A stretch of 64,000 bases of DNA from Oceanispirochaeta sp. (GTDB lineage Bacteria > Spirochaetota > Spirochaetia > DSM-2461), in NCBI GenBank assembly GCA_963663385.2, contig CAXXXD010000002.1, forward strand, positions 1,600,001 through 1,664,000, read 5' to 3'. Of this stretch, positions 50,881 through 63,985 are shown one piece after another. Each line of letters starts with the position of its first letter. Positions within the stretch are counted from its first letter, which is position 1. A program made the translations under genes and the position numbers. Under the pieces are notes generated by a model. The model saw nothing but the letters and a program-made list of their open reading frames with translations. It did no database searches and was not told where the DNA came from.

Positions 50881-51841
50881 GTAAGCGGTAATTCTTCCCA
50901 CATTGACAGCATTTTAGGCCTGAGGGATCAGATTGAAATATCTTCAGCAGTTAAGTTGTAGGGAAGTAATTTTTCATAATCACTCTGTTTTTCACAGCAG
51001 GGCAATTCCCGGAAGATGAAGTACAAGTAAGCATAAACAGGAAGATTATTCATCTTCGCAGAGTCAACAAGGCTGTACAGAATTGCCGATGATTCAGCAC
51101 CTTTCGGGCTCCCGGCAAAAAGCCAGTTTTTTCTTCCGATTACAAATGGTCTGATTGCATTTTCAGCGCTATTGTTCGAAGGAGTCAATACCGGATTTTC
51201 CAGATACAAAACCAGCTGCTCCCAGTTGATTAATGTGTACTTCATCGCCTTTCCGAACTCTAAAGAGGGAGGGACTTGAGGATAAAGGAGGGTCAGTTTT
51301 TTCTGTAATTTATCCAGTATCGGTTCTGCCCTGTTTTTCCTCTGCTTGTAAAAACCTTTTAGCGAATAATTCATCCCGTAGAGATTCCAGTTCAAATAGG
51401 TCCTTTATCAGGTCGAGAATTTGCTTCGCTTCTGCATCCTTTTTCTTGGTTGCTTCCCAGTATTGGAAGAACTTTCTTCTGGCATGAGCCCAGCATAAAA
51501 CATGTTTTATATCTCCCTCGACTTTCTTTCGAGCGGTACGATATGCCTCAAAATCATCGGTCTGAATCCAGCCTGAAAAATCTTCTAAAAACTCCAAAGG
51601 GATCGTATGGGACCGACCTTGTTCGTACTGGAATATGACACATTTTTTATCAGGATCTCTTCTAAGAAAGACCCACATCCATGATTTATCAGCAGTTTTT
51701 CGCTTCGGCTCTTTTAACACCTGAACCCTTGTCTCATCAGCATTGATGACATTGCCGGATTTGATGTTTTCTTTCAGCAATTCATATAGTGGCTTACAGG
51801 CTGTTGCTGACTTAATCGTAAGATTGCTCAATGTCGCCCGG
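50881..51841 (-). mobile_element. Truncated IS66-family element (right end plus 3' part of tnpC)
   Basis: Begins GTAAGCGGTAATTCTTCCCACATTGACAGC, the reverse complement of the right end at 60864. Related but not identical to the IS66 at 56524-60864; similarity stops at about 51841. Confidence 0.92.
50928..51841 (-). pseudogene. tnpC: IS66 tnpC remnant with +1 frameshift near 51382
   Basis: Two overlapping ORFs match the C-terminal half of intact TnpC; GGGATGAATTAT here versus GGGATAATTAT in the intact copy. Confidence 0.9.
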
Positions 51842-51863
51842 ATGCTCGCCCATGCATCCGGGA

Positions 51864-52013
51864 ATTGGTCAATATAAAATATCTCTGGTGTAAAGCTCAG
51901 GGATATGTTTGATCAAATCAGGATTTAGTTTGCTCCATGGAGTGAACCGCTCCGTGCGGACCCGCTTGCAGGGTGGTGTGGGGCCCGAGGTTAGAAGCCT
52001 CCGGCTACCCGAT
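51864..52013 (+). mobile_element. Group IIC intron 3' fragment (RT tail plus domains V-VI), variant 2
   Basis: Encodes LVNIKYLWCKAQGYV*, then GAACCGC...GGTGGTGTGGGG...TACCCGAT. Confidence 0.9.
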
Positions 52014-52023
52014 TTCTGCAGTC

Positions 52024-52527
52024 TTATTTTTTATTGTCTAACCTCATAATTATAGATGTCCCTGCCGCACCACATTCAATAAAACCATTTCTTTCATATA
52101 ATCTAACTGCAGGATTATCCGGATCAACGCTTAATGAAATTGAATCTATTTTATATTTTGTTTGATTTAATAATTCTTTTAATAATGCTGATCCAATTTT
52201 CTGCCCACGCTTGTGGTAATCGACTGCAATTCCGAGTTCTGGTATATTATCAGCTATGTATCCATATCCTTTATCGCTGGAAGTGAAGTAACGTAGCCAA
52301 ATTGCTCCTATTCTTTTTTTTGTTTTATTATCAATAGCAATGTATCCAAAATCTCCTTTTTTACCCCAATTCTCAACATATTTACGAATTTTGGGATCTT
52401 TGATTATATCACGATCCGGAGGAGGGGAATTTGTATCAACATATATTGATTGGTAGAGCATTTCATATAGAAAATCCTGATCATTGACACCTATTTTTCT
52501 TAATAAAAAATTATTTTCATTTCCCAT
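52024..52527 (-). CDS. GNAT-family N-acetyltransferase
   Basis: PELGIAV...RGQKIG..LL, SLSVD..NPA.RLYER.GF; AT-rich. Confidence 0.9.
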   Translation of the reverse strand: MGNENNFLLRKIGVNDQDFLYEMLYQSIYVDTNSPPPDRDIIKDPKIRKYVENWGKKGDFGYIAIDNKTKKRIGAIWLRYFTSSDKGYGYIADNIPELGIAVDYHKRGQKIGSALLKELLNQTKYKIDSISLSVDPDNPAVRLYERNGFIECGAAGTSIIMRLDNKK

Positions 52528-52849
52528 ACATTTATTCCTTGATTTAAATATTTAATATTATTGAATTATTTCATTACGGTGTAAATATAAAAAATATGTA
52601 TAACTTTTTTATATAAAACCTAATAAATAATTTCAGTTATGATAAAATACTTACCTACACAATATTCTCAGTTCCAAGTTTCTTTATTTACCACCGGAGG
52701 TTAAATCCATAACCAAATATTTCTTTGCATACTTTCCAATTCTATTTTCTATGGCACATAATTTTTTCCCATCCGCCGCAGGCGGATTAATATATTCTGA
52801 TTTTGAAAAACAATTCACTAATCATAATAAATATCCCGCCTTACATAAC

Positions 52850-53170
52850 GAGACTGTAGAAAAACTCAAACTGGGTATTTTCAAGGCTCCCCTGAAAGTA
52901 CTCATTTGGAAAAATCATTCATCTCTTTGATTTCAATATTAAATCCGATTAAAACCGGCTATATTCAACTACAATTGGTTTATCCTACGCTATACCCATT
53001 CTTTAGCACTTTTCCGTATTCCTACGCACTATACTGCTGGATTTTCCCGATATTATGCACGATACAGTACAACAACCACTGTGTCCGGACCTTTTCCGTA
53101 CCCCGTAAAGTAAAGCGATTCAGCTTTTTCATTCCGGCAATATGTCCGAATACAGGTCCCACCGTATACC
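52850..53170 (-). mobile_element. IS1182-family remnant (transposase C-terminus plus right end)
   Basis: TV.PVFG.I...NRFTLRG..KV..QW.L.C.VHNI.K; terminus GAGACTGTAGAAAAACTC at 52850. Confidence 0.7.
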
Positions 53171-53250
53171 GACCGTCATTGCTTCTGAAGTCGGGGGATT
53201 TCAGCCACATGTCATGACCGGCAGGGTAGATAAGCTGGTTGGTTGCCGTA

Positions 53251-53332
53251 TCCATGGAGTGAACCGCTCCGTGCGGACCCGCATGCTCATTTGATGTGGG
53301 GGTTGGAGGTTAAAAGCCTCCGGCTACCCGAT
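53251..53332 (+). mobile_element. Group IIC intron 3' fragment (degenerate DV plus DVI only)
   Basis: TCCATGGAGTGAACCGCTCCGTGCGGACCCGCATGC...GGAGGTTAAAAGCCTCCGGCTACCCGAT. Confidence 0.88.
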
Positions 53333-53351
53333 TTACGCAGACTTTTTAATT

Positions 53352-53627
53352 CTATTTATATGCTTCATCATGGGACCCAATACTTATGGGAATTATAGTT
53401 TCATCTTGGATCAGGAATTCGATTGTTATTCGGTATGAAATATTAATAGATATACTATATAGTTCTGATAAATTCCCTTTTAACTGATGTAAGCGTAGAG
53501 ATGGGTGATTAGGATTTATTTCCATTAGCTGTAAAGTCTTAGAATACTGTCTTTTTATCTCTGGGTGTTTTTTTAAAAATTTTGCAGCTTTTTTTTCATA
53601 ACTATGTGTAAATATGATTTTAGGCAT
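53352..53627 (-). CDS. Type II toxin, RelE/ParE (YafQ-like) superfamily
   Basis: 91 aa; HPSLRLH.LKG.L...SISIN.SYRI...IGSHD..Y; overlaps the antitoxin stop codon. Confidence 0.85.
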   Translation of the reverse strand: MPKIIFTHSYEKKAAKFLKKHPEIKRQYSKTLQLMEINPNHPSLRLHQLKGNLSELYSISINISYRITIEFLIQDETIIPISIGSHDEAYK

Positions 53628-53877
53628 CAGTTATTCTTTCTATATGGTCTTCAATACTCCCGGTATAATAATTTCCTTCTTGTATATCTTTTTTTGCTTC
53701 AACTAATGCGGCTTCAAGTTCACATTCTCTTAAGCGGTTGTATTCATCAATAGAAAGAACAATATATTTAATTTTACCTCTGACAGTTATAACTGCTTCA
53801 TTCTCCTCAGAGATCACTTGATCCAGAACTGAGACACCTTTAATTTTCAAATCATTGGCTGTTATACTATTAAACAT
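53620..53877 (-). CDS. Type II antitoxin, Phd/YefM family
   Basis: 85 aa; ITANDLK..G...VITVRGK..Y.VL...EY. Confidence 0.85.
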   Translation of the reverse strand: MFNSITANDLKIKGVSVLDQVISEENEAVITVRGKIKYIVLSIDEYNRLRECELEAALVEAKKDIQEGNYYTGSIEDHIERITDA

Positions 53878-54066
53878 TTTTTTACCTCATTATCAATAGT
53901 ACGATTAATTGTGCTCTAAATCAATTCTATAACAGTTGAATTATTATGTATTTTCTAAGAAAGGGTAACCTCGCAAATTATCTTGGACCAATCTCTTATG
54001 AACCTATCTAACTGACAAAGATCATTTCACAAAACAGTTGAATCAGTTTTCTCATCCTCCGAACAT

Positions 54067-54105
54067 AAAAAAAGGAGCAACTCCCCGCCAAGGTTTCTGC
54101 TCCTT
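54067..54105 (-). terminator. Terminator-like hairpin with U-tract on the minus strand
   Basis: AAGGAGCA...TGCTCCTT preceded by a poly-A run on the plus strand. Confidence 0.5.
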
Positions 54106-54408
54106 AAATCTCACTCCCTCCCCAAAAGGAGGAAACTTAACTGTTACTTCTTTTTCGGATATCTTTACAAAAATTTCAAGCCCTTGGAAAAGATTTTTTC
54201 TGGAATAAACCAAATCATTGTCCAAAATGCGGAAGCCGGGTACTCTGGGGCCATGGTTTTGTTTACCGCTACTTCAATGAATTTCCGGAAGCCCTTCTTC
54301 TCAAACGATACCGTTGTCCCTGCTGCGGAGCAGTGTACCAATAGAAATATCTGACTAGGCGATCCTGGGGCTGGTCGCAAACAAGTTTGCTGCTCGCCCA
54401 TGCAACCA

Positions 54409-54906
54409 GGGTGTTTCTATGGAATACAGGATCCGGAAACTCAATGAGTATATCCGGGCCCTGGTCACAGCTCCGCTGTTGCTCGGGTATGCGGCCGAGC
54501 TGGATGAACTATTATGGAATCTCCCAGTATTACAGCCCTCTTCAGAACCTAGATGATTGGCTCCGCAGGAGGATTCGCATGTGCTATTGGAAACAATGGC
54601 GTTATCCCAGAACAAAAGTCAGGAAACTGATGGAATTGGGTATCCCTAAAGATTTTGCAATTATTACAGGTGCCAGTAGTAAATCCTACTGGCATCTCTC
54701 CAAGTCATACGCTACCAATGCGGCGATGTCCAACAAATGGCTGGAAGAGCAAGGATTGGTCAATATCAAATACCTCTGGTGCAAAGCCCAGGGATATGTT
54801 TGATCAAATCAGGATTTTAGTTTGCTCCATGGAGTGAACCGCCCTGTGCGGACCCGCATGCAGGGTGGTGTGGGGGCTGGAGGTTAAAAGCCTCCGGCTA
54901 CCCGAT
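54409..54906 (+). mobile_element. Group IIC intron 3' fragment (maturase region plus DV-DVI), variant 2, carrying a 40-nt insertion
   Basis: GVSMEYRIRKLNEYIR / WMNYYGISQ...LVNIKYLWCKAQGYV*, then intact DV-DVI ending CCCGAT at 54906. Confidence 0.9.
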
Positions 54907-56600
54907 TTATGAAGGAGTTTTTTAATTATATCTAACTCCAAATATTTGTTCTGTACTTTACATTGTTTTCAAAAGTCCAACCACTTCAGTTACACGCGTG
55001 GAATGTCTGGAGGAAGCCGGAATGCAAAACCGGGAGCCCATGTACAAGAATGTGATAGAAGGCTCAGTTCCAGAGGCGAGTCAGCCAATGATGACGATGC
55101 CCCGTGGGTATGGAATAGGGTAAATCACAGGGTTGTCCGGGGACAGTGTACAGTCTTATTCGGGGAGATCTGTCTGCGGGGCGGTGATGTGTTCTTTTAA
55201 ACTGAGAATCCGGTAGGGAACCGGAAAACCAATCCCCGGCTTTTCAGAGGGTGACACTCTGGAAATGAGCAAGATTATCTTGAGTACAAATAAGTCGTCA
55301 CAGGTTTAAAAGCACGGTATAGCATCAACGGGAGCAATCTCGTTGATTAGCAGGCAGAAGTCAGCAGAAGGCATAGTAACCAACGCCCGGAGTAATGTCC
55401 GGTTCACGGTGAAGGCCTGAACATTTCACAAGGAGGAGCCTTATGGTTCTCAAAGGAACAATTTTAGCACTGGCCGAAATAACTTTTGGCGAATTATGGA
55501 GAAACCAGCCTTGAACGATTCTATGATGGATTTGATTTTATCATCTGAAAACATGCGTAAGGCCTGGAAACAGGTCAAACGCAATGGCGGCAGTCCGGGA
55601 GTCAATGGCATGACTATTGAGAAATTTCCGGAATATCTACGCAGAAGATGGAGTAAAATCAAGCAAGCTTTGCTTTTGGGGTACTATGTACCCTCTCCGG
55701 TGCTCAGGGTGGAAATCCCCAAGAGATCCGGAGGTATGCGAATGCTGGGTATTCCCACTATTTTAGACAGGGTTATCCAACAGGCTATTTCACAGGTTTT
55801 GAATCCTCTATTCGATTCGGATTTTTCGGAAAGCAGTTTTGGATTCAGGCCGGGAAGATCGGCTCACGGAGCAGTACGACAGGTAAATACCTATGTTAAA
55901 TCGGGATACAAGTATGCAGTTGATCTGGACTTGGAAAAGTTCTTTGATACGGTAAATCACGATATTCTGATGCATTGTGTGGCTAAGAAAGTCCGGGACA
56001 AATCAGTCCTGAAATTGATTGGCCGCTACCTGAGAGCCGGTATTATGGACAAGGATGGGATTAAAATCCCTACTGAAATCGGGACTCCTCAAGGAGGCCC
56101 GTTATCACCTCTACTTTCCAATATCCTTCTTGATAATTTCGATAAGGAGTTGGAACGGAGAAACCTGTGCTTTGCACGTTACGCAGATGATGCATTAATT
56201 GTATCAAAACGCCTGTGTGATGGAAAAGCTATATTGACTGAAATAAGTGATTATCTCAGTCGCAGGTTAAAATTGGTTGTAAACCAGAAGAAAAGCAAGG
56301 TGTGTAAAATCTCCGAATGCAGTTTTCTGGGATTCACTTTCAAGGGTAAGAAAATCCGATGGACTGAATCATCCTTTCGGGAGTTTCAATATCAGTTAAA
56401 GCATTTGACAAGACGGTCTTGGGGGGTATCAATGGAATATCGATTCCGGAAACTTAACGAGTATATCCGGGGGTGGATGAACTATTATGGTATTTCCCAA
56501 TATTACAGACCTCTACAATCAATGTAAGCGGTAATTCTCTCCATCTTGCGTGATTTCGAAATGATTATATACTCCATGAAAAATCATGGAGGAACCTAAT

Positions 56601-56882
56601 ATGACCAACTGGAATTGGCCTGAATTAATCGAAGAACAAAAACAGAGCGGGAAAACAATTTCTGAGTTCTGCGCAGATAAAGGAGTTCACTATACATCTT
56701 TCTACAAGAATCGAAAAAAATTAAAGAAAAGCAGTTTTATTGAAATCAAACAGAAAGCCCCGGTATTACAGCCACAAAACCCCACAATGATACTCAGATA
56801 CAAGGATTTCTCATTGGATCTGGCATCAGGTTATAACAGGCAATCCCTGATAGATCTTCTGAAGATTCTGAGAGAGTTGTAA
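56601..56882 (+). CDS. tnpA: IS66 accessory protein TnpA
   Basis: W..LIEEQ..SG.TI.EFC...G...SFY..RKK; GGAGG RBS before ATG 56601 (alternative start 56586). Confidence 0.85.
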   Translation: MTNWNWPELIEEQKQSGKTISEFCADKGVHYTSFYKNRKKLKKSSFIEIKQKAPVLQPQNPTMILRYKDFSLDLASGYNRQSLIDLLKILREL

Positions 56883-59215
56883 TGTTTGGTACGCCCGACA
56901 TGGCTGTACGCTAATGAGGTGAAAGTCCTCTACAGGTGCCCACGTATAGTGAACATGCTATACCAACTGTTAGCTGAAGGCAAGGGCATTTCCGCGAGGG
57001 AATGTCTGGAGGAAGCCGGAATGCAAAACCGGGAGCCCATGTACAAGAATGTGATAGAAGGCTCAGTTCCAGAGGCGAGTCAGCCAATGATGACGATGCC
57101 CCGTGGGTATGGAATAGGGTAAATCACAGGGTTGTCCGGGGACAGTGTACAGTCTTATTCGGGGAGATCTGTCTGCGGGGCGGTAATGTGTTCTTTTAAA
57201 CTGAGAATCCGGTAGGGAACCGGAAAACCAATCCCCGGCTTTTCAGAGGGTGACACTCTGGAAATGAGCAAGATTATCTTGAGTACAAATAAGTCGTCAC
57301 AGGTTTAAAAGCACGGTATAGCATCAACGGGAGCAATCTCGTTGATTAGCAGGCAGAAGTCAGCAGAAGGCATAGTAACCAACGCCCGGAGTAATGTCCG
57401 GTTCACGGTGAAGGCCTGAACATTTCACAAGGAGGAGCCTTATGGTTCTCAAAGGAACAATTTTAGCACTGGCCGAAATAACTTTTGGCGAATTATGGAG
57501 AAACCAGCCTTGAACGATTCTATGATGGATTTGATTTTATCATCTGAAAACATGCGTAAGGCCTGGAAACAGGTCAAACGCAATGGCGGCAGTCCGGGAG
57601 TCAATGGCATGACTATTGAGAAATTTCCGGAATATCTACGCAGAAGATGGAGTAAAATCAAGCAAGCTTTGCTTTTGGGGTACTATGTACCCTCTCCGGT
57701 GCTCAGGGTGGAAATCCCCAAGAGATCCGGAGGTATGCGAATGCTGGGTATTCCCACTATTTTAGACAGGGTTATCCAACAGGCTATTTCACAGGTTTTG
57801 AATCCTCTATTCGATTCGGATTTTTCGGAAAGCAGTTTTGGATTCAGGCCGGGAAGATCGGCTCACGGAGCAGTACGACAGGTAAATACCTATGTTAAAT
57901 CGGGATACAAGTATGCAGTTGATCTGGACTTGGAAAAGTTCTTTGATACGGTAAATCACGATATTCTGATGCATTGTGTGGCTAAGAAAGTCCGGGACAA
58001 ATCAGTCCTGAAATTGATTGGCCGCTACCTGAGAGCCGGTATTATGGACAAGGAGGGGATTAAAATCCCTACTGAAATCGGGACTCCTCAAGGAGGCCCG
58101 TTATCACCTCTACTTTCCAATATCCTTCTTGATAATTTCGATAAGGAGTTGGAACGGAGAAACCTGTGCTTTGCACGTTACGCAGATGATGCATTAATTG
58201 TATCAAAACGCCTGTGTGATGGAAAAGCTATATTGACTGAAATAAGTGATTATCTCAGTCGCAGGTTAAAATTGGTTGTAAACCAGAAGAAAAGCAAGGT
58301 GTGTAAAATCTCCGAATGCAGTTTTCTGGGATTCACTTTCAAGGGTAAGAAAATCCGATGGACTGAATCATCCTTTCGGGAGTTTCAATATCAGTTAAAG
58401 CATTTGACAAGACGGTCTTGGGGGGTATCAATGGAATATCGATTCCGGAAACTTAACGAGTATATCCGGGGGTGGATGAACTATTATGGTATTTCCCAAT
58501 ATTACAGACCTCTACAATCAATTGATGAATGGCTGAGAAGAAGAATCCGTATGTGCTACTGGAAACAGTGGCGTTACCCCAGAACAAAAGTCAGGAAACT
58601 GATGGAGCTGGGTATTCCGAAAGATTTTGCCATTATGACAGGAGCAAGTAGTAAGTCCTACTGGCATCTGTCAAAAGGCTATGCAACCAATGCCGCTATG
58701 TCCAATAAATGGTTGGAAGAGCAAGGATTGATCAATATTAAGGCCCTCTGGTGTAAAATCCAGGGCTACACATGATCAAATTATAGTTTCGTTTGCTCCA
58801 TGGAGTGAACCGCCCTGTGCGGACCCGCATGCAGGGTGGTGTGGGGGCTGGAGGTTAAAAGCCTCCGGCTACCCGATTTGACCTGAACGAATACCGGATC
58901 TTTCTGAGACCCGGCACGACAGACTTAAGAAAAGCGATCAACGGATTATCTCTGTTTATCCAGAATGAAATGAATCATGATTTATTCGCCAAATCGCTAT
59001 TCCTCTTTTGTAACCGGCAGAGAAAACTTCTGAAAATTGTCTACTGGGATAATACCGGTTTTTGTCTCTGGCAGAAGAGACTGGAAGAGAACAGATATCC
59101 CTGGCCGGAAACAGATGAAGATGCTAAAGAGATCAGCATGGATGAATTGAAAATGCTCCTGACGGGAATAGACTTTTTCAAAGCGCATAAAAAATTATCA
59201 TATTCCCGTATTTAG
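56882..59215 (+). CDS. tnpB: IS66 TnpB split by intron (exons 56882-56888 and 58878-59215; 114 aa spliced)
   Basis: Spliced sequence ATG TTT G|TT GAC gives MFVDLNEYRIFLRPGTTDLRKAINGL...LFLFCNR...KIVYWD.TGF.LW.KRLE, all in frame. Confidence 0.9.
56889..58877 (+). mobile_element. Full-length group IIC intron copy B (1989 nt)
   Basis: 5' GTACGCCCGACATGG; short DV with CGC triad (GAACCGCC); 3' CCCGAT; RT lacks an endonuclease domain. Confidence 0.93.
57495..58775 (+). CDS. ltrA: Group II intron reverse transcriptase/maturase (426 aa)
   Basis: R.LGIPT..DR.IQQA, SFGFRPGRS, DLEKFFD, GTPQGGPLSPLL, RYADD, FLGF, GWMNYY. Confidence 0.96.
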   Translation: MEKPALNDSMMDLILSSENMRKAWKQVKRNGGSPGVNGMTIEKFPEYLRRRWSKIKQALLLGYYVPSPVLRVEIPKRSGGMRMLGIPTILDRVIQQAISQVLNPLFDSDFSESSFGFRPGRSAHGAVRQVNTYVKSGYKYAVDLDLEKFFDTVNHDILMHCVAKKVRDKSVLKLIGRYLRAGIMDKEGIKIPTEIGTPQGGPLSPLLSNILLDNFDKELERRNLCFARYADDALIVSKRLCDGKAILTEISDYLSRRLKLVVNQKKSKVCKISECSFLGFTFKGKKIRWTESSFREFQYQLKHLTRRSWGVSMEYRFRKLNEYIRGWMNYYGISQYYRPLQSIDEWLRRRIRMCYWKQWRYPRTKVRKLMELGIPKDFAIMTGASSKSYWHLSKGYATNAAMSNKWLEEQGLINIKALWCKIQGYT

Positions 59216-59254
59216 AGATTTTATAATTATAGAAACTTTGATAGAATTCCCCGT

Positions 59255-60817
59255 ATGGAGAATGAAGAACAGCATTTAAGAGAACAACTTGATGCACAAA
59301 AAATAGAAATTGCTGAACTGAAAAGACTTAATGCCATTCTCCAGGAGCAAGTAGCAAAACTGAACCTCCTGCACTTTGGAACAAAATCAGAGAAGATAAC
59401 TGCCGAAGATAAGAAACAAGCTTCTCTCTTCAATGAAGCGGAAGATAGTGCTTTTGCTCAGAATGATGAAGAGCAGGAGAAAAATGTTATTGAAACGGTT
59501 GAGGTCGGTTCCTACAAGAAAAATATTAAAAAATCCGGCCGGAAACCTCTGCCGGCAGATCTGCCGAGAGAGATCGTGGAATATGATATTCCGGATAAAG
59601 ATAAGATCTGTGCCTGCGGAACAGAAAAGACCTGTATCGGTGAAGATGTTTCCGAGAGAGCAAAAATTATTCCGTCAAAAGTCGTTGTTATTCAGGAACG
59701 TAGAAAAAAGTACTCCTGCAAGAATTGTGAAGGGACGACTCTTGATGAAGCTGCTGTACAGACCGCAGAAGGAGCAAAGCATCTGGTCGCGGGCAGTATT
59801 GCCGATGAAAGCCTGCTCGCTTGGAGTATAAGCGAAAAGTTTGAGTTCGCTCTTCCTTTCTACAGGCAATCAAAACGGTTAAACCAGATAGGCATACCGA
59901 TCCCCCGGGCGACATTGAGCAATCTTACGATAAAATCGGCAACGGCATGTAAGCCTCTATATGATTTGCTGAAAGAAAACATTAAATCCGGTTCCATTAT
60001 TAATGCCGATGAGACGAGAGTTCAGGTTCTAAAGGAACCGAAACGAAAAGCTTCAGATAAATCATGGATGTGGGTCTTTCTCAGAGGAGATCCCGATAAA
60101 AAATGTGTCATATTTCAGTATGAGCAAGGCCGATCCCATGCAATTCCGTTGGATTTCTTGGAAAATTACTCTGGCTGGGTTCAAACTGATGATTTTGAGG
60201 CCTACCATACTGCCCGAAAAAAAGTTGATGGAGATATAAAGCATGTCTTATGCTGGGCCCATGCCAGAAGAAAGTTCTTCCAATATTGGGAATCAACCAA
60301 GAAAAAAGATGCAGAAGCAAAGCAAATTCTCGACCTGATAAAGGATCTGTTTGAACTGGAATCATTACGGGATAATTATTCGCTAAAAGGGTTTCATAAA
60401 CAGCGACAAAATAGAGCAGAACCGATACTAGATAAGTTACAGAAAAAACTGACGAAGCTTTATCCTCAAGTACCTCCTTCTTTAGAGTTCGGTAAGGCGA
60501 TGAAGTATACATTGAGCAACTGGGAGCAGTTGGTTCTATATCTGAAAAATCCTGTTTTGACTCCTTCGAACAATAGCGCTGAAAATGCAATCAGACCCTT
60601 CGTAATCGGGAGAAAAAACTGGCTTTTTGCCGGAAGCCCGAAAGGTGCTGAATCATCGGCAATTCTGTACAGTCTCGTTGAATCTGCGAAGATGAACAAT
60701 CTTCCAGTTTATGCTTACTTGTACTTTATCTTCCGGGAATTGCCCTGCTGTGAAAAACAGAGTGATTATGAAAAATTACTTCCCTATAATTTAACTGCTG
60801 AAGATATTGCAATCTGA
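59255..60817 (+). CDS. tnpC: IS66 DDE transposase TnpC
   Basis: FGTKSEK, zinc ribbon, ADET, CWAHARRKF, NN.AE.AIRP...GRKNWLF. Confidence 0.95.
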   Translation: MENEEQHLREQLDAQKIEIAELKRLNAILQEQVAKLNLLHFGTKSEKITAEDKKQASLFNEAEDSAFAQNDEEQEKNVIETVEVGSYKKNIKKSGRKPLPADLPREIVEYDIPDKDKICACGTEKTCIGEDVSERAKIIPSKVVVIQERRKKYSCKNCEGTTLDEAAVQTAEGAKHLVAGSIADESLLAWSISEKFEFALPFYRQSKRLNQIGIPIPRATLSNLTIKSATACKPLYDLLKENIKSGSIINADETRVQVLKEPKRKASDKSWMWVFLRGDPDKKCVIFQYEQGRSHAIPLDFLENYSGWVQTDDFEAYHTARKKVDGDIKHVLCWAHARRKFFQYWESTKKKDAEAKQILDLIKDLFELESLRDNYSLKGFHKQRQNRAEPILDKLQKKLTKLYPQVPPSLEFGKAMKYTLSNWEQLVLYLKNPVLTPSNNSAENAIRPFVIGRKNWLFAGSPKGAESSAILYSLVESAKMNNLPVYAYLYFIFRELPCCEKQSDYEKLLPYNLTAEDIAI

Positions 60818-61300
60818 TCCATCAGTCCTAAAATGCTGTCAATGTGGGAAGAATTACCGCTTACCAATCAATTGATGAATGGCTGAGAAGAAGAATCCGT
60901 ATGTGCTACTGGAAACAGTGGCGTTACCCCAGAACAAAAGTCAGGAAACTGATGGAGCTGGGTATTCCGAAAGATTTTGCCATTATGACAGGAGCAAGTA
61001 GTAAGTCCTACTGGCATCTGTCAAAAGGCTATGCAACCAATGCCGCTATGTCCAATAAATGGTTGGAAGAGCAAGGATTGATCAATATTAAGGCCCTCTG
61101 GTGTAAAATCCAGGGCTACACATGATCAAATTATAGTTTCGTTTGCTCCATGGAGTGAACCGCCCTGTGCGGACCCGCTTGCAGGGTGGTGTGGGGGCTG
61201 GAGGTTAAAAGCCTCCGGCTACCCGATTTATACGGCCCGCATTTTACCAACATCTTCCGCGCCCCCGCCGAAGCACAGGACGTGCGGAGGTGGATTTCTT

Positions 61301-63985
61301 TCAATCTTTGTACTCCCTGAAACTTCTCATAAGACCATCAAATGAAGTCGGTTTATACTTATGAAAAGCCGCTTCATCAACAAAGACAAAATCAAAATGT
61401 ATATCTTTCTGAACTCTGTTGATGTCTTCACACCACTGCTTAAGTCTTTTCATCTTTTCCGGTACATCCAAATCTTCAAGACCTTTTGTTTCGACAATTA
61501 CTATCTCTTTATTTGTGACTTTCACAAGAAAATCCGGGTAGTAATTTGAAGGAAAACCATCTTTATTGATGTAATCAATAGTAAAGTGAACTGCTAGGAA
61601 GTTTTTGGCATAGGAAATAATGTCGGTACAATCTTCAAGAAAAGCTGCAAATTCAAGTTCAAGATGGCTGTCTCCAATAATTTTATTAAAAACAGATTTC
61701 TTGGGTATGATGAAACCTTGATCTTTAGCAACAAAGGGTCGTGTTTTTCTCAATTTTATATAATCGCGAATCTCTGCATCGCCTTTATCCTGCACAGTCA
61801 GTTCATTAATATATTTCTTGAATGATTCAATGATCGTTTTTGTGGCCTGTAGTTCAGATAAATTTCTTAGTGTATTCAGATCATCGATTTCAACGGTTTC
61901 TTGAAATAAATGATTGGCAATGAAATCCTTAACTTTGCCATAAAGAACATCGTATCCGCTGACAAGCCGTAAATCTTTCATTATTACCTGAGCGAAGTAA
62001 CCTACGACACTTCTATAATCTGTTACCGCAGTTGTATCCAGGTGCGTGACATGATTTACCTCGTTGGTGGTAATATCCTTAAAAACAATTTCACGTTTTT
62101 GTTCTTCTGAAAATTCAAGATATTCAATCTTTTGATTACCGAAAGATGAAGGGTTTAAGTTGGCAAAATTTTTATATTCACGATATATTCGGGGAGTAAG
62201 AACAGGTATTTCGATATCCAACTTTTCAATATCCTTGTTGGTATTTTCATTATCAACTTCAACAATGATCGGTGCTTTCGGTGCTGTGCCTTCCCCCATT
62301 GGTTTCCGTTCAAGCTCAACACCTTCACTTTGGATTGATTCAACAAAATCCATAAATGCATCAGTTCCGACAATGCTGACATATTCTTCTATGTCAGAAC
62401 CAAAGTACATACGGCGCAAACCACGGCCAAGTGTTTGTTCCGGTAAGATATTGCTTTTAGAAGAATATGCACGAAGTCCAACTATAGTTGTTACATTTCG
62501 AACATCCCAGCCTTCTTTCAGCATTAGAACTGATACGATGGCTTTGTACGGGCTATCCCAGCTATCAATTTTATTGGATTCATCTCGTAATTTGTCTAAT
62601 TCTTCTTTTTTCTTACCTGTTGTGGATTCTGAGATTTCACCACTTTTATTGGTATGAATAGTCATCACTGAATCTTTAAACTCCGGGAAGCTTGATTCAA
62701 GATATTCTGCAACTTCATCACAGTTTTTTGTGTCATCTGTCATAATGAAAAGAATGGCCTTTTTTCCAAGCTTTTCATGTTCAGAGTACACCTTCCGCCA
62801 TTCTTCAACTCCGAGATTAATGTAGTCGGAATACCGTTCTGTAAAAAGTGAGCTTTGTTTTTCTGCAAGTTTTGCTCGACTTGCACTATCAGGTAATACC
62901 GGATGCTTTACAACATTTTGTGAAATGGCTTCTACTAACGGATAATCAGAAATTGTCTGAACAAAAATTGCTCCGTTATTGTGTTTAGGTGTTGCAGTCA
63001 CATCAACCTGTAAAGAAAGAAAATGATCCTTTTGAAGGAGCTTATTATGTATATCCTGAATTGATTTAAACCAAGCAAGTTTAGAATCATGAATATGATG
63101 GGCTTCGTCATTTAACACAACAAGCTCGTCAATATCTCTAACAATCTCACCAAGATCAACTTTGGAGTCTGTTGTTTTTCCAGTCGGACGTTTACCAAGG
63201 AAATAATCCATTGTGTTTTCAGCAGCAAAACTTGCCTCGGCAGTATCAGCTGAATAAACACGATGAATATTGGTCAAAAAGATATTTCCTGTTTTGCGGA
63301 CAATACTGACATCATCCTGTATATGAAGTGTCAATTGAAAATCATCCTGCCAATTCTGACCGTCATACCCGTTGTCCGGAAGAATCGGGTCTTCAAAGAA
63401 AATTCGCAGTCCGTCAAAATCAGTTCTGATCCGGTCAAGAACAATGATATTAGGGGCAATTAAAAGGAAGTTTCTGGCAAGTTCCGAGTCTTCTTCATAG
63501 GTTTTATGAAAGTACGCCCATGCAAGGATCAGACTCATGACTTTTGTTTTACCGCTTCCGGTAGCCATTTTAACTACAAGCCGCCTCCATTCCTCATCAA
63601 ACATTCCCGCAGAAACCGCCTGGGAGGAATCGTAGCGAAGCATATCGTATTTATCTTTAACCTTTACCACATCATAAAGATAGATAACGGTTTCCACGGC
63701 TTCTCTTTGTGCATAGTAATACTTGAAAGGAATAACTGAACCATCGGCCTTGGGAATGAGGTGTTCGGTTTTAAACCACCAATTCAGCAAAGAAATGCTG
63801 GTATTGCTGGCTCCTTCATAATTTTTCTCCCTCCAGCCATGGATTTCTTTCCTTAACGAATGAACCAGAGGAGGCAGCAATTTTTCATAACTCGATTCCC
63901 TTAATGCTTCGTCAGCAGGGAACCAGCGGACATCCGGGTGAAGAATTTCATAAGGGGATGATGGAAAATCGGGATGTATTGCCAT
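61301..63985 (-). CDS. Type III restriction enzyme Res subunit-like (SF2 helicase plus PD-(D/E)XK nuclease)
   Basis: MATGSGKT, DEAHH, TATP, EGWD, Q..GRGLR, C-terminal YYPDF...VETKG. Confidence 0.88.
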   Translation of the reverse strand: MAIHPDFPSSPYEILHPDVRWFPADEALRESSYEKLLPPLVHSLRKEIHGWREKNYEGASNTSISLLNWWFKTEHLIPKADGSVIPFKYYYAQREAVETVIYLYDVVKVKDKYDMLRYDSSQAVSAGMFDEEWRRLVVKMATGSGKTKVMSLILAWAYFHKTYEEDSELARNFLLIAPNIIVLDRIRTDFDGLRIFFEDPILPDNGYDGQNWQDDFQLTLHIQDDVSIVRKTGNIFLTNIHRVYSADTAEASFAAENTMDYFLGKRPTGKTTDSKVDLGEIVRDIDELVVLNDEAHHIHDSKLAWFKSIQDIHNKLLQKDHFLSLQVDVTATPKHNNGAIFVQTISDYPLVEAISQNVVKHPVLPDSASRAKLAEKQSSLFTERYSDYINLGVEEWRKVYSEHEKLGKKAILFIMTDDTKNCDEVAEYLESSFPEFKDSVMTIHTNKSGEISESTTGKKKEELDKLRDESNKIDSWDSPYKAIVSVLMLKEGWDVRNVTTIVGLRAYSSKSNILPEQTLGRGLRRMYFGSDIEEYVSIVGTDAFMDFVESIQSEGVELERKPMGEGTAPKAPIIVEVDNENTNKDIEKLDIEIPVLTPRIYREYKNFANLNPSSFGNQKIEYLEFSEEQKREIVFKDITTNEVNHVTHLDTTAVTDYRSVVGYFAQVIMKDLRLVSGYDVLYGKVKDFIANHLFQETVEIDDLNTLRNLSELQATKTIIESFKKYINELTVQDKGDAEIRDYIKLRKTRPFVAKDQGFIIPKKSVFNKIIGDSHLELEFAAFLEDCTDIISYAKNFLAVHFTIDYINKDGFPSNYYPDFLVKVTNKEIVIVETKGLEDLDVPEKMKRLKQWCEDINRVQKDIHFDFVFVDEAAFHKYKPTSFDGLMRSFREYKD

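Follow-up and report, generated by a model that had tools for sequence, protein, structure and literature searches.

A group IIC-attC intron in the tnpB gene of one IS66 copy of an Oceanispirochaeta genome

How does a group II intron come to lie within a codon of an insertion sequence (IS) gene, and does it matter to the IS? This question is raised by a 64,000-nucleotide stretch of Oceanispirochaeta sp. DNA (assembly GCA_963663385.2, contig CAXXXD010000002.1, positions 1,600,001 to 1,664,000; G000 C2:1600001-1664000), hereafter the window, in which an intron of 1989 nt (56889-58877, plus strand) interrupts the third codon of tnpB within one copy of an IS66-family element. Positions given without a contig name are window coordinates. 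A preliminary description of the locus had proposed that the IS mimics the target of the intron, that the intron can hitchhike on IS66, and that its splicing may gate transposition. Our results suggest a different reading: a IIC-attC intron, whose normal homes are the attC sites of a chromosomal integron, has probably entered one IS66 copy by a recent, one-off ectopic retrotransposition.

Limits of the intron and consequences for tnpB

We compared both halves of the intron-bearing IS with the whole genome by BLAST and found nine intron-free IS66 copies in which 56888 is joined straight to 58878 with 100% identity, so that the limits of the intron are exact and unambiguous; comparison with these nine copies left no other placement of the insertion compatible with both sides. 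Across the two junctions the window reads ...TAATGTTTG/GTACGCCCGAC...CTACCCGAT/TTGACCTG, or, in a longer read, ...GAGTTGTAATGTTTG/GTACGCCCGACATGG ... GGCTACCCGAT/TTGACCTGAACG (a slash marks the junction here and in the motifs below). The empty site predicted in the preliminary description was recovered as written in one intron-free copy (L017:400-470), and none of the nine copies carried a differing junction.

The insertion follows the first base of codon 3 (ATG TTT G/TT), and the tnpA stop TAA (56880-56882) shares a base with the tnpB ATG (56882-56884), which gives the TAATG coupling of the two genes noticed before. The intron-free copy L017 translates to a TnpB of 114 aa (MFVDLNEY...), in agreement with the product expected after removal of the intron. 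If unspliced, the tnpB ATG opens a frame of only 10 codons (MFGTPDMAVR, stop), and translation from the following in-frame start, at 58970 in the 3' exon, would yield only 81 aa. Therefore, full-length TnpB from the intron-bearing copy would need splicing, and the frames support the view that this copy could supply it only via spliced RNA, as the preliminary description had held. The element as a whole shows the features of its family, i.e., the gene order tnpA-tnpB-tnpC, the DDE_Tnp_IS66 domain, an 8-bp target duplication (CAATCAAT, at 56516-56523 and 60865-60872) and GTAAGCG ends, which we take to be typical of IS66 (terminal inverted repeats, GTAAGCGGTAATTCT). Pfam gave no match for the 98-aa tnpA product. 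The coordinates of all features are collected in Table 1.

Table 1. Features of the intron-bearing IS66 copy and of the older intron copy around it (window coordinates)
Feature	Position	Strand	Basis or remark
Older 5'-truncated intron copy hosting IS66, left part	55000..56523	+	intron positions 111-1634
IS66-family element	56524..60864	+	4341 bp with intron, 2352 bp without; Pfam DDE_Tnp_IS66 8e-85, TnpB_IS66 2e-34
tnpA, first ORF of IS66 (open reading frame), 98 aa	56586..56882	+	ORF; stop overlaps tnpB ATG
AACAGGCA, 5' arm of R-box-like helix	56835..56842	+	partner TGTTTG (56883-56888) plus TT (58878-58879)
tnpB exon 1, ATG TTT G	56882..56888	+	last three bases TTG = intron-binding site 1 (IBS1)
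Group IIC-attC intron, 1989 nt, GTACGCCCGACATGG...CTACCCGAT	56889..58877	+	Rfam, BLAST copies, class of reverse transcriptase (RT)
Exon-binding site 1 (EBS1; CAA, plus U) in loop GCCAAUGA of domain I (D1) hairpin	57085..57088	+	compensatory changes in relatives; pairs with exon-terminal (A/U)UUG
Intron-encoded protein, 426 aa, RT + maturase	57495..58775	+	RVT_1 1.3e-44, GIIM 4.2e-18
Intron domains V-VI (D5/D6)	58808..58877	+	RF00029, 48 bits
tnpB exon 2, TT GAC CTG ... stop	58878..59215	+	first base T = IBS3; Pfam TnpB_IS66, E 2e-34, domain start 58880
tnpC transposase, 520 aa	59255..60817	+	Pfam DDE_Tnp_IS66
Older intron copy, right part	60865-61227	+	intron positions 1627-1989; 3' exon TTATAC

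Class of the intron and its native targets

The element is an intron of the group IIC-attC kind and belongs to a chromosomal integron. Inside it, Rfam recognized RF02001 (56988-57153, 114.3 bits) and RF01998 (57322-57416, 62.2 bits) in addition to D5/D6, and Pfam found only RVT_1 and GIIM in the 426-aa protein, with no endonuclease (En) domain. All top PDB matches of the RT were IIC enzymes (GsI-IIC 6ar1, 2.8e-127; 7uim, 1.8e-102; 5hhj and 5hhl), whereas non-IIC structures matched far more weakly (IIB 6me0, 1.4e-37; IIA LtrA, 3.7e-33). Among 80 loci encoding related RTs that were compared, the closest came from Spirochaetia (79-81% identity). The RT is also 50-52% identical to those of introns on enterobacterial plasmids; genomic context was examined for one of these, the intron H3 of an E. 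coli plasmid (52%), which lies beside qacEdelta1-sul1 and whose 5' junction reads ...GCGCTTGT/GTACGCCCAGCATGG, i.e., TTGT/GTACGCCCAGCATGG. In a 19-row RT tree, from which nine rows with in-frame stops in their crude translations (L042, L051, L067, L070-L072, L080, L083 and L085), including all Bacillaceae IIC introns, had been left out, the intron grouped with the class 1 integron plasmid intron (support 82/79) and Desulfobacterota relatives, and was separated from Lachnospiraceae IIC introns with support of 100/100.

The genome holds eight full-length copies of the intron with 99.5-100% identity, one of them interrupted by IS66, and fragments besides. The copy in tnpB is 100% identical to four other uninterrupted full-length copies and to the two pieces of the copy at C2:1667245, which IS66 interrupts. 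When longer flanks were folded, several intron sites closed imperfect hairpins of 95-175 nt of the form TATAAC...G/TTATA. The eight uninterrupted sites from which an attC covariance model (R1) was built share a consensus fold of 37 pairs, of which 20 show compensatory changes, with two bulges in its 3' arm. This model found 20 sites in the 169.5 kb examined, six of which end 4 nt into a full-length intron. Thus, six of the eight full-length introns sit in attC, cut between G and TT of the AAC...GTT R-box. The cassette ORFs are encoded on the other strand and each of them stops at its own attC, which places the introns in the attC bottom strand and antisense to the cassettes. The seventh copy (C2:97525) follows a strong terminator with a 17-bp stem and a T-run (minimum free energy (MFE) -12.6; 0.9% of random genomic 65-mers as stable), so that seven of the eight copies have a stem-loop context (six attC, one terminator). 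The same preference was observed in three related genomes: of 14 intron 5' junctions, 13 fall where an attC match ends (E 2.4e-5 or better), and the fourteenth scored 11.6 bits. The integron integrase itself (C2:1688005-1688940; 412-aa frame) is intact, with a score of 381 bits (curated cut-off, 265), and adjoins one intron copy about 24 kb past the right end of the window.

The integron comprises at least 20 attC sites in four stretches across all four contigs (loci L018-L023; C2:1664001-1692000, directly right of the window, C3:725000-760000, C4:1176000-1196000 and C1:20000-40000). By length these sites form two classes, one of about 95-135 nt and one of about 173 nt, and six hold identical introns. 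The covariance model detected no attC within the window itself. A genome-wide regular expression for attC (ATAAC...GTTAT) was discarded in favor of nhmmer and then the covariance model, as most of its 95 'good' matches were unrelated.

The 5' exon ends in TTG in all eight full-length copies, with nothing conserved further upstream, and the 3' exon starts with TT in seven and with TTAT in six. EBS1, which the preliminary description had placed by analogy, sits as CAAT in an 8-nt loop of a D1 hairpin (57082-57089). Among the relatives with a mapped 5' junction (n=29), 14 end in TTGT, five in TGGT and the three spirochaete ones in xTTG; the 3' exon begins with T in each of the 49 relatives for which it was mapped. 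The assignment of EBS1 is confirmed because the loop co-varies with the 5' exon end: GCCAAUGA (CAAU) pairs with (A/U)UUG, GCACAACA (ACAA) occurs in relatives with UUGU, GCACCACA (ACCA) with UGGU at two loci, and GCCACACA (CACA) with UGUG at one, although several related loci have one mismatch between loop and exon end. A short IBS1-EBS1 pairing of 3-4 nt and a single-base IBS3 are as in group IIC, and the absence of IBS2 is judged solely from the lack of conservation.

The spirochaete branch cuts TTG/TT, one base upstream of the published TTGT/T in the same TTGTT motif. Correspondingly, the covariance-model matches reach 4 nt into the intron both here and in L025, and 3 nt into it in L027. The TTG/TT register was found in L024, L025, L081 and L115-L128, and TTGT/T in Desulfobacterota and enterobacterial introns (L027-L098 and L114); the change in EBS1 (CAAU in spirochaetes versus ACAA) matches the shift. 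TTG/TT is thus a variant register that differs from the consensus TTGT/T and gives no ground for excluding the intron from the IIC-attC lineage. The passages of the IIC-attC literature that we examined contain no mention of such a one-base shift.

These properties can be set beside known introns. Passages of two published accounts (PMC3001079, PMC7923331) place the IIC-attC introns S.ma.I2, E.c.I7, Kl.pn.I1 and Ge.s.I1 in the bottom strand of attC, antisense to the cassettes. The present intron shares with this group the 5' end GTACGCCCxxCATGG, its first 15 bases resembling the primer sequences given for Ge.s.I1 and Sh.ba.I2 in the relevant part of PMC3001079, as well as the lack of a detectable En domain, a short IBS1, T as IBS3, residence in attC bottom strands and occasional insertion after terminators. 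It differs in its register and in that the copy studied here lies in neither an attC nor a terminator but in a coding sequence, in sense orientation. The copy at C2:97525, with a stem-loop followed by a short IBS1, is like the terminator-targeting IIC introns in the portion of PMC4424553 that describes them, whereas the IS66 site has no significant stem-loop.

The IS66 site and the route of the intron

Does the start of tnpB resemble an attC? As far as sequence goes, AACAGGCA (56835-56842) and TGTTTG+TT can form eight contiguous pairs, two of them G-T (arms AACAGGCA and TGTTTGTT), around a small hairpin, AGATCTT/AAGAT(T)CT, at 56852-56869. One R-box feature is present, since AAC (56835-56837) faces G (56888) plus TT (58878-58879) and the cut falls at G/TT. 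A whole imperfect attC hairpin with L-box and extrahelical bases was not found at the site. The structure that had been proposed amounts as DNA to -0.2 kcal/mol, its outer helix alone to +1.0, and the 71-nt empty site folds with an MFE of -4.8 (z -0.42), a value reached or exceeded by 62 of 200 shuffles. Likewise, 60% of 1500 random genomic 65-mers were as stable as the IS66 site or more so. The attC covariance model gave no match at the site, either in the intron-free IS66 or in the window, with filters at default or off; with filters off, the 2.5-kb locus yielded eight matches at E up to 10, the best of 6.6 bits and none at the site. The helix is therefore possible by sequence and not thermodynamically significant, and these values give no thermodynamic support for an attC-like fold. 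The proposed link to attC survives in one part, as the intron is of the IIC-attC kind and inserts at G/TT in real R-boxes, and fails in the other, as the IS66 site itself is not attC-like; the folding of the empty site, which had been suggested as a check, did not bear out mimicry.

The insertion is also rare. Only one of ten identical IS66 targets in the genome holds the intron, the IS66-intron junction was found in one of 61 genomes searched, namely this one (the others, 71-100% complete, yielded no copy of this IS66 itself), and an IS66 tnpB was present at the intron 3' exon in none of the 80 related-intron loci. This pattern lends no support to hitchhiking on IS66 and gives no sign of any spread of the composite. 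An IS66 relative (TnpB 43% and TnpC 39% identical) does occur on an uncultured Desulfobacterium chromosome (L060, 38-1551, minus strand), the only one of these 80 loci with IS66 genes, directly upstream of, and on the opposite strand to, an RT truncated at residue 164; thus, IS66 stands beside a broken intron of the present family in another phylum too.

Transposition of IS66-family elements needs their accessory ORFs, according to work on IS679. In this genome, nine intact tnpB copies are available as a source of TnpB, provided that the protein is trans-acting, so that its supply does not depend on the intron unless it is strictly cis-acting, and the idea that splicing gates transposition finds no support. 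The spliced 12-nt junction ATGTTTGTTGAC is identical to the DNA and RNA junction of the nine intron-free copies, and RT-PCR for it cannot discriminate in this strain. Among public runs, eight hold at least half of the sampled words of 56600-57200, all as contigs of uncertain kind; the IS66 body has no cover in runs X1, X2 and X6 despite high word shares, and no contig listed from four runs bridges the IS66-intron junctions. One X11 contig carries the intron-free join 56888>58878, which agrees with the empty site and is indistinguishable from the DNA of intron-free copies. The public runs thus allow no inference on presence, absence or splicing.

Taken together, a recent, single accident appears to be the likely origin of the composite. 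The mobile intron, which normally reverse-splices at G/TT in the AAC/GTT R-box of the bottom strands of chromosomal integron attC sites, would have gone off target into single-stranded DNA of one IS66 copy. That site would have offered the few bases read by the ribozyme, namely TTG as IBS1 for the EBS1 bases CAA and T as IBS3, and perhaps, in the register of attC, a weak closing helix of AAC...GTT as well. Having landed in sense orientation, the intron would leave this copy to obtain full-length TnpB from spliced RNA, while overall IS66 activity would not depend on such splicing, because nine intact copies remain. What the data show is how the locus is built, to which class the intron belongs, where its native targets lie, how EBS1 pairs with IBS1 and how rare the IS66 event is; reverse splicing as the route, and the recency of the event, are inferred. 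Homologous recombination was considered as the route of entry and rejected, as the insertion is base-exact at a site fitting EBS1 and EBS3.

Several observations fit this account less well. The occupied site has the best AAC...GTT helix of the nine TTG/TT sites in IS66 (eight pairs versus at most five), and only 3.05% of 12,042 genomic TTG/TT sites have an AAC-anchored helix as good, a comparison of modest weight as it was framed after the site had been seen. The choice of site may therefore have involved some attC-like geometry besides the IBS bases. In addition, splicing itself is something we infer; all copies are identical, and hence the order of intron and IS66 events is unreadable, so that the intron may have entered IS66 before or after IS66 entered the old intron copy. 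Finally, the RT tree has no Bacillaceae IIC introns and does not delimit the base of the attC lineage.

The helix results are also an argument for the alternative that the tnpB start is a functional attC mimic, a preferred secondary homing site from which the intron rides IS66 while its splicing controls TnpB and transposition. The identical register of AAC...G/TT, the sense orientation, which implies co-transcription with tnpABC, and the precedent of Sr.md.I1, which homes into an IS66-family ORF and has three of four copies inside the IS according to part of PMC4615759, point the same way. We nevertheless regard it as quite unlikely, since nine of ten identical targets are empty although seven other full-length introns of 99.5-100% identity reside in the genome, 367 other genomic TTG/TT sites with an equal helix hold none of the eight mapped full-length introns, and neither the covariance model (6.6 bits at best, elsewhere in the IS), the fold, the survey of 61 genomes and 80 loci, which gave no second IS66::intron, nor the nine intact tnpB genes favor it. 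Its reduced form, with the tnpB start as a minimal attC mimic (R-box helix plus TTG/T) and the composite as both escape vehicle and expressed donor, seems just as doubtful to us; if true, an integron-bound intron would gain transcription and a DNA transposon carrier to new replicons, neither of which it has in attC, and splicing efficiency would set the contribution of this copy to TnpB. It is also unlikely, if a little easier to imagine, that an accidental insertion has become the main expressed donor, being the only full-length copy in sense orientation in a transcribed gene while the others are antisense and poorly transcribed. Six of the eight copies are indeed antisense to cassettes, the IS66 copy lies in sense orientation downstream of tnpA, and passages of PMC3001079 report no transcription of S.ma.I2 in its host and suggest that antisense insertion limits mobility. 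On the other side, expression of the IS66 copy is putative, as is the promoter activity of this IS66, which lies inside a dead intron copy; the copy at C2:97525 is presumably in sense orientation as well, judging from the terminator on the intron's strand; and identical copies leave no donor traceable. By far the least probable is an assembly artefact in which two multi-copy repeats were wrongly joined. Both IS66 and the intron are high-copy repeats, and among the contigs listed for the four public runs none spans 56888/56889 by 31 letters to either side; yet the two have no sequence in common that would let an assembler switch between them, the junctions fall exactly at the first and last base of the intron, at a TTG/TT site fitting EBS1 and EBS3, and the IS66 retains its 8-bp target duplication.

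Group II introns inside IS elements, including a member of the IS66 family, have already been published, as seen in sections of PMC4615759: Sr.md.I1 of Sinorhizobium medicae sits within the transposase ORF of an IS66-family element, and ISRm2011-2/ISRm17 harbor RmInt1/RmInt2. Like Sr.md.I1, the present case is a bacterial group II intron inside an IS of the same family, where it travels only if the IS moves. Those introns belong to class D/IIB, with long sequence-specific homing sites and most copies in IS elements (3/4), whereas here a IIC intron occupies one of ten IS copies, in tnpB rather than in the transposase gene, and has its real homing sites in attC. Among the papers listed in a literature search covering titles, the beginnings of abstracts and selected passages, none reported a IIC-attC intron in an IS66 tnpB. 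The value of the locus as we read it, i.e., as an ectopic insertion, is that of a natural off-target case for a IIC-attC intron, in a genome with 20 mapped attC sites and 10 identical off-target sites, which offers a clean system for asking what, beyond four bases, a IIC intron reads in DNA. Its surroundings may be of more specialist interest, namely a spirochaete chromosomal integron heavily colonized by one intron, the one-base register shift with a matching change in EBS1, and the recurrent nesting of the intron, IS66 and an apparent IS21-family element within one another.

Nested elements and the neighborhood

IS66 has in turn inserted into intron copies at least four times among its 11 copies, at intron positions 1627-1634, 1789-1796 (twice) and near 1649 (window 56516-56523/60865-60872, C2:1669041-1673629, C3:747913-750264 and C3:750413). 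Both insertions at 1789-1796 share one 8-bp target, GGCTATGC, but are opposite in relative orientation, and therefore look independent. The IS66 at C3:750413-752764 has unlike flanks, which points to rearrangement. A 2225-bp element with ORFs of 427 and 254 aa was present in six identical copies (C2:1670708-1672932, C2:119050-121274 and four more), two of them inside IS66 copies. Its translations look like IstA and IstB of an IS21-family IS, in which case three kinds of mobile element are nested in one another.

Within the window, left of the older intron copy, a remnant at 50896-51841 (minus strand) is 88% identical to the right half of IS66, and diverged 5'-truncated intron 3' ends occur at 51864-52013 (83%), 53251-53332 (89%) and 54409-54906 (82-85%), each followed by TTCT, TTAC or TTAT. 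The remnants at 50896-54906 are older layers of IS66 and intron. Directly right of the old intron copy lies an ORF of 894 aa (61301-63985, minus strand), whose translation, by eye, resembles a restriction-enzyme helicase subunit.

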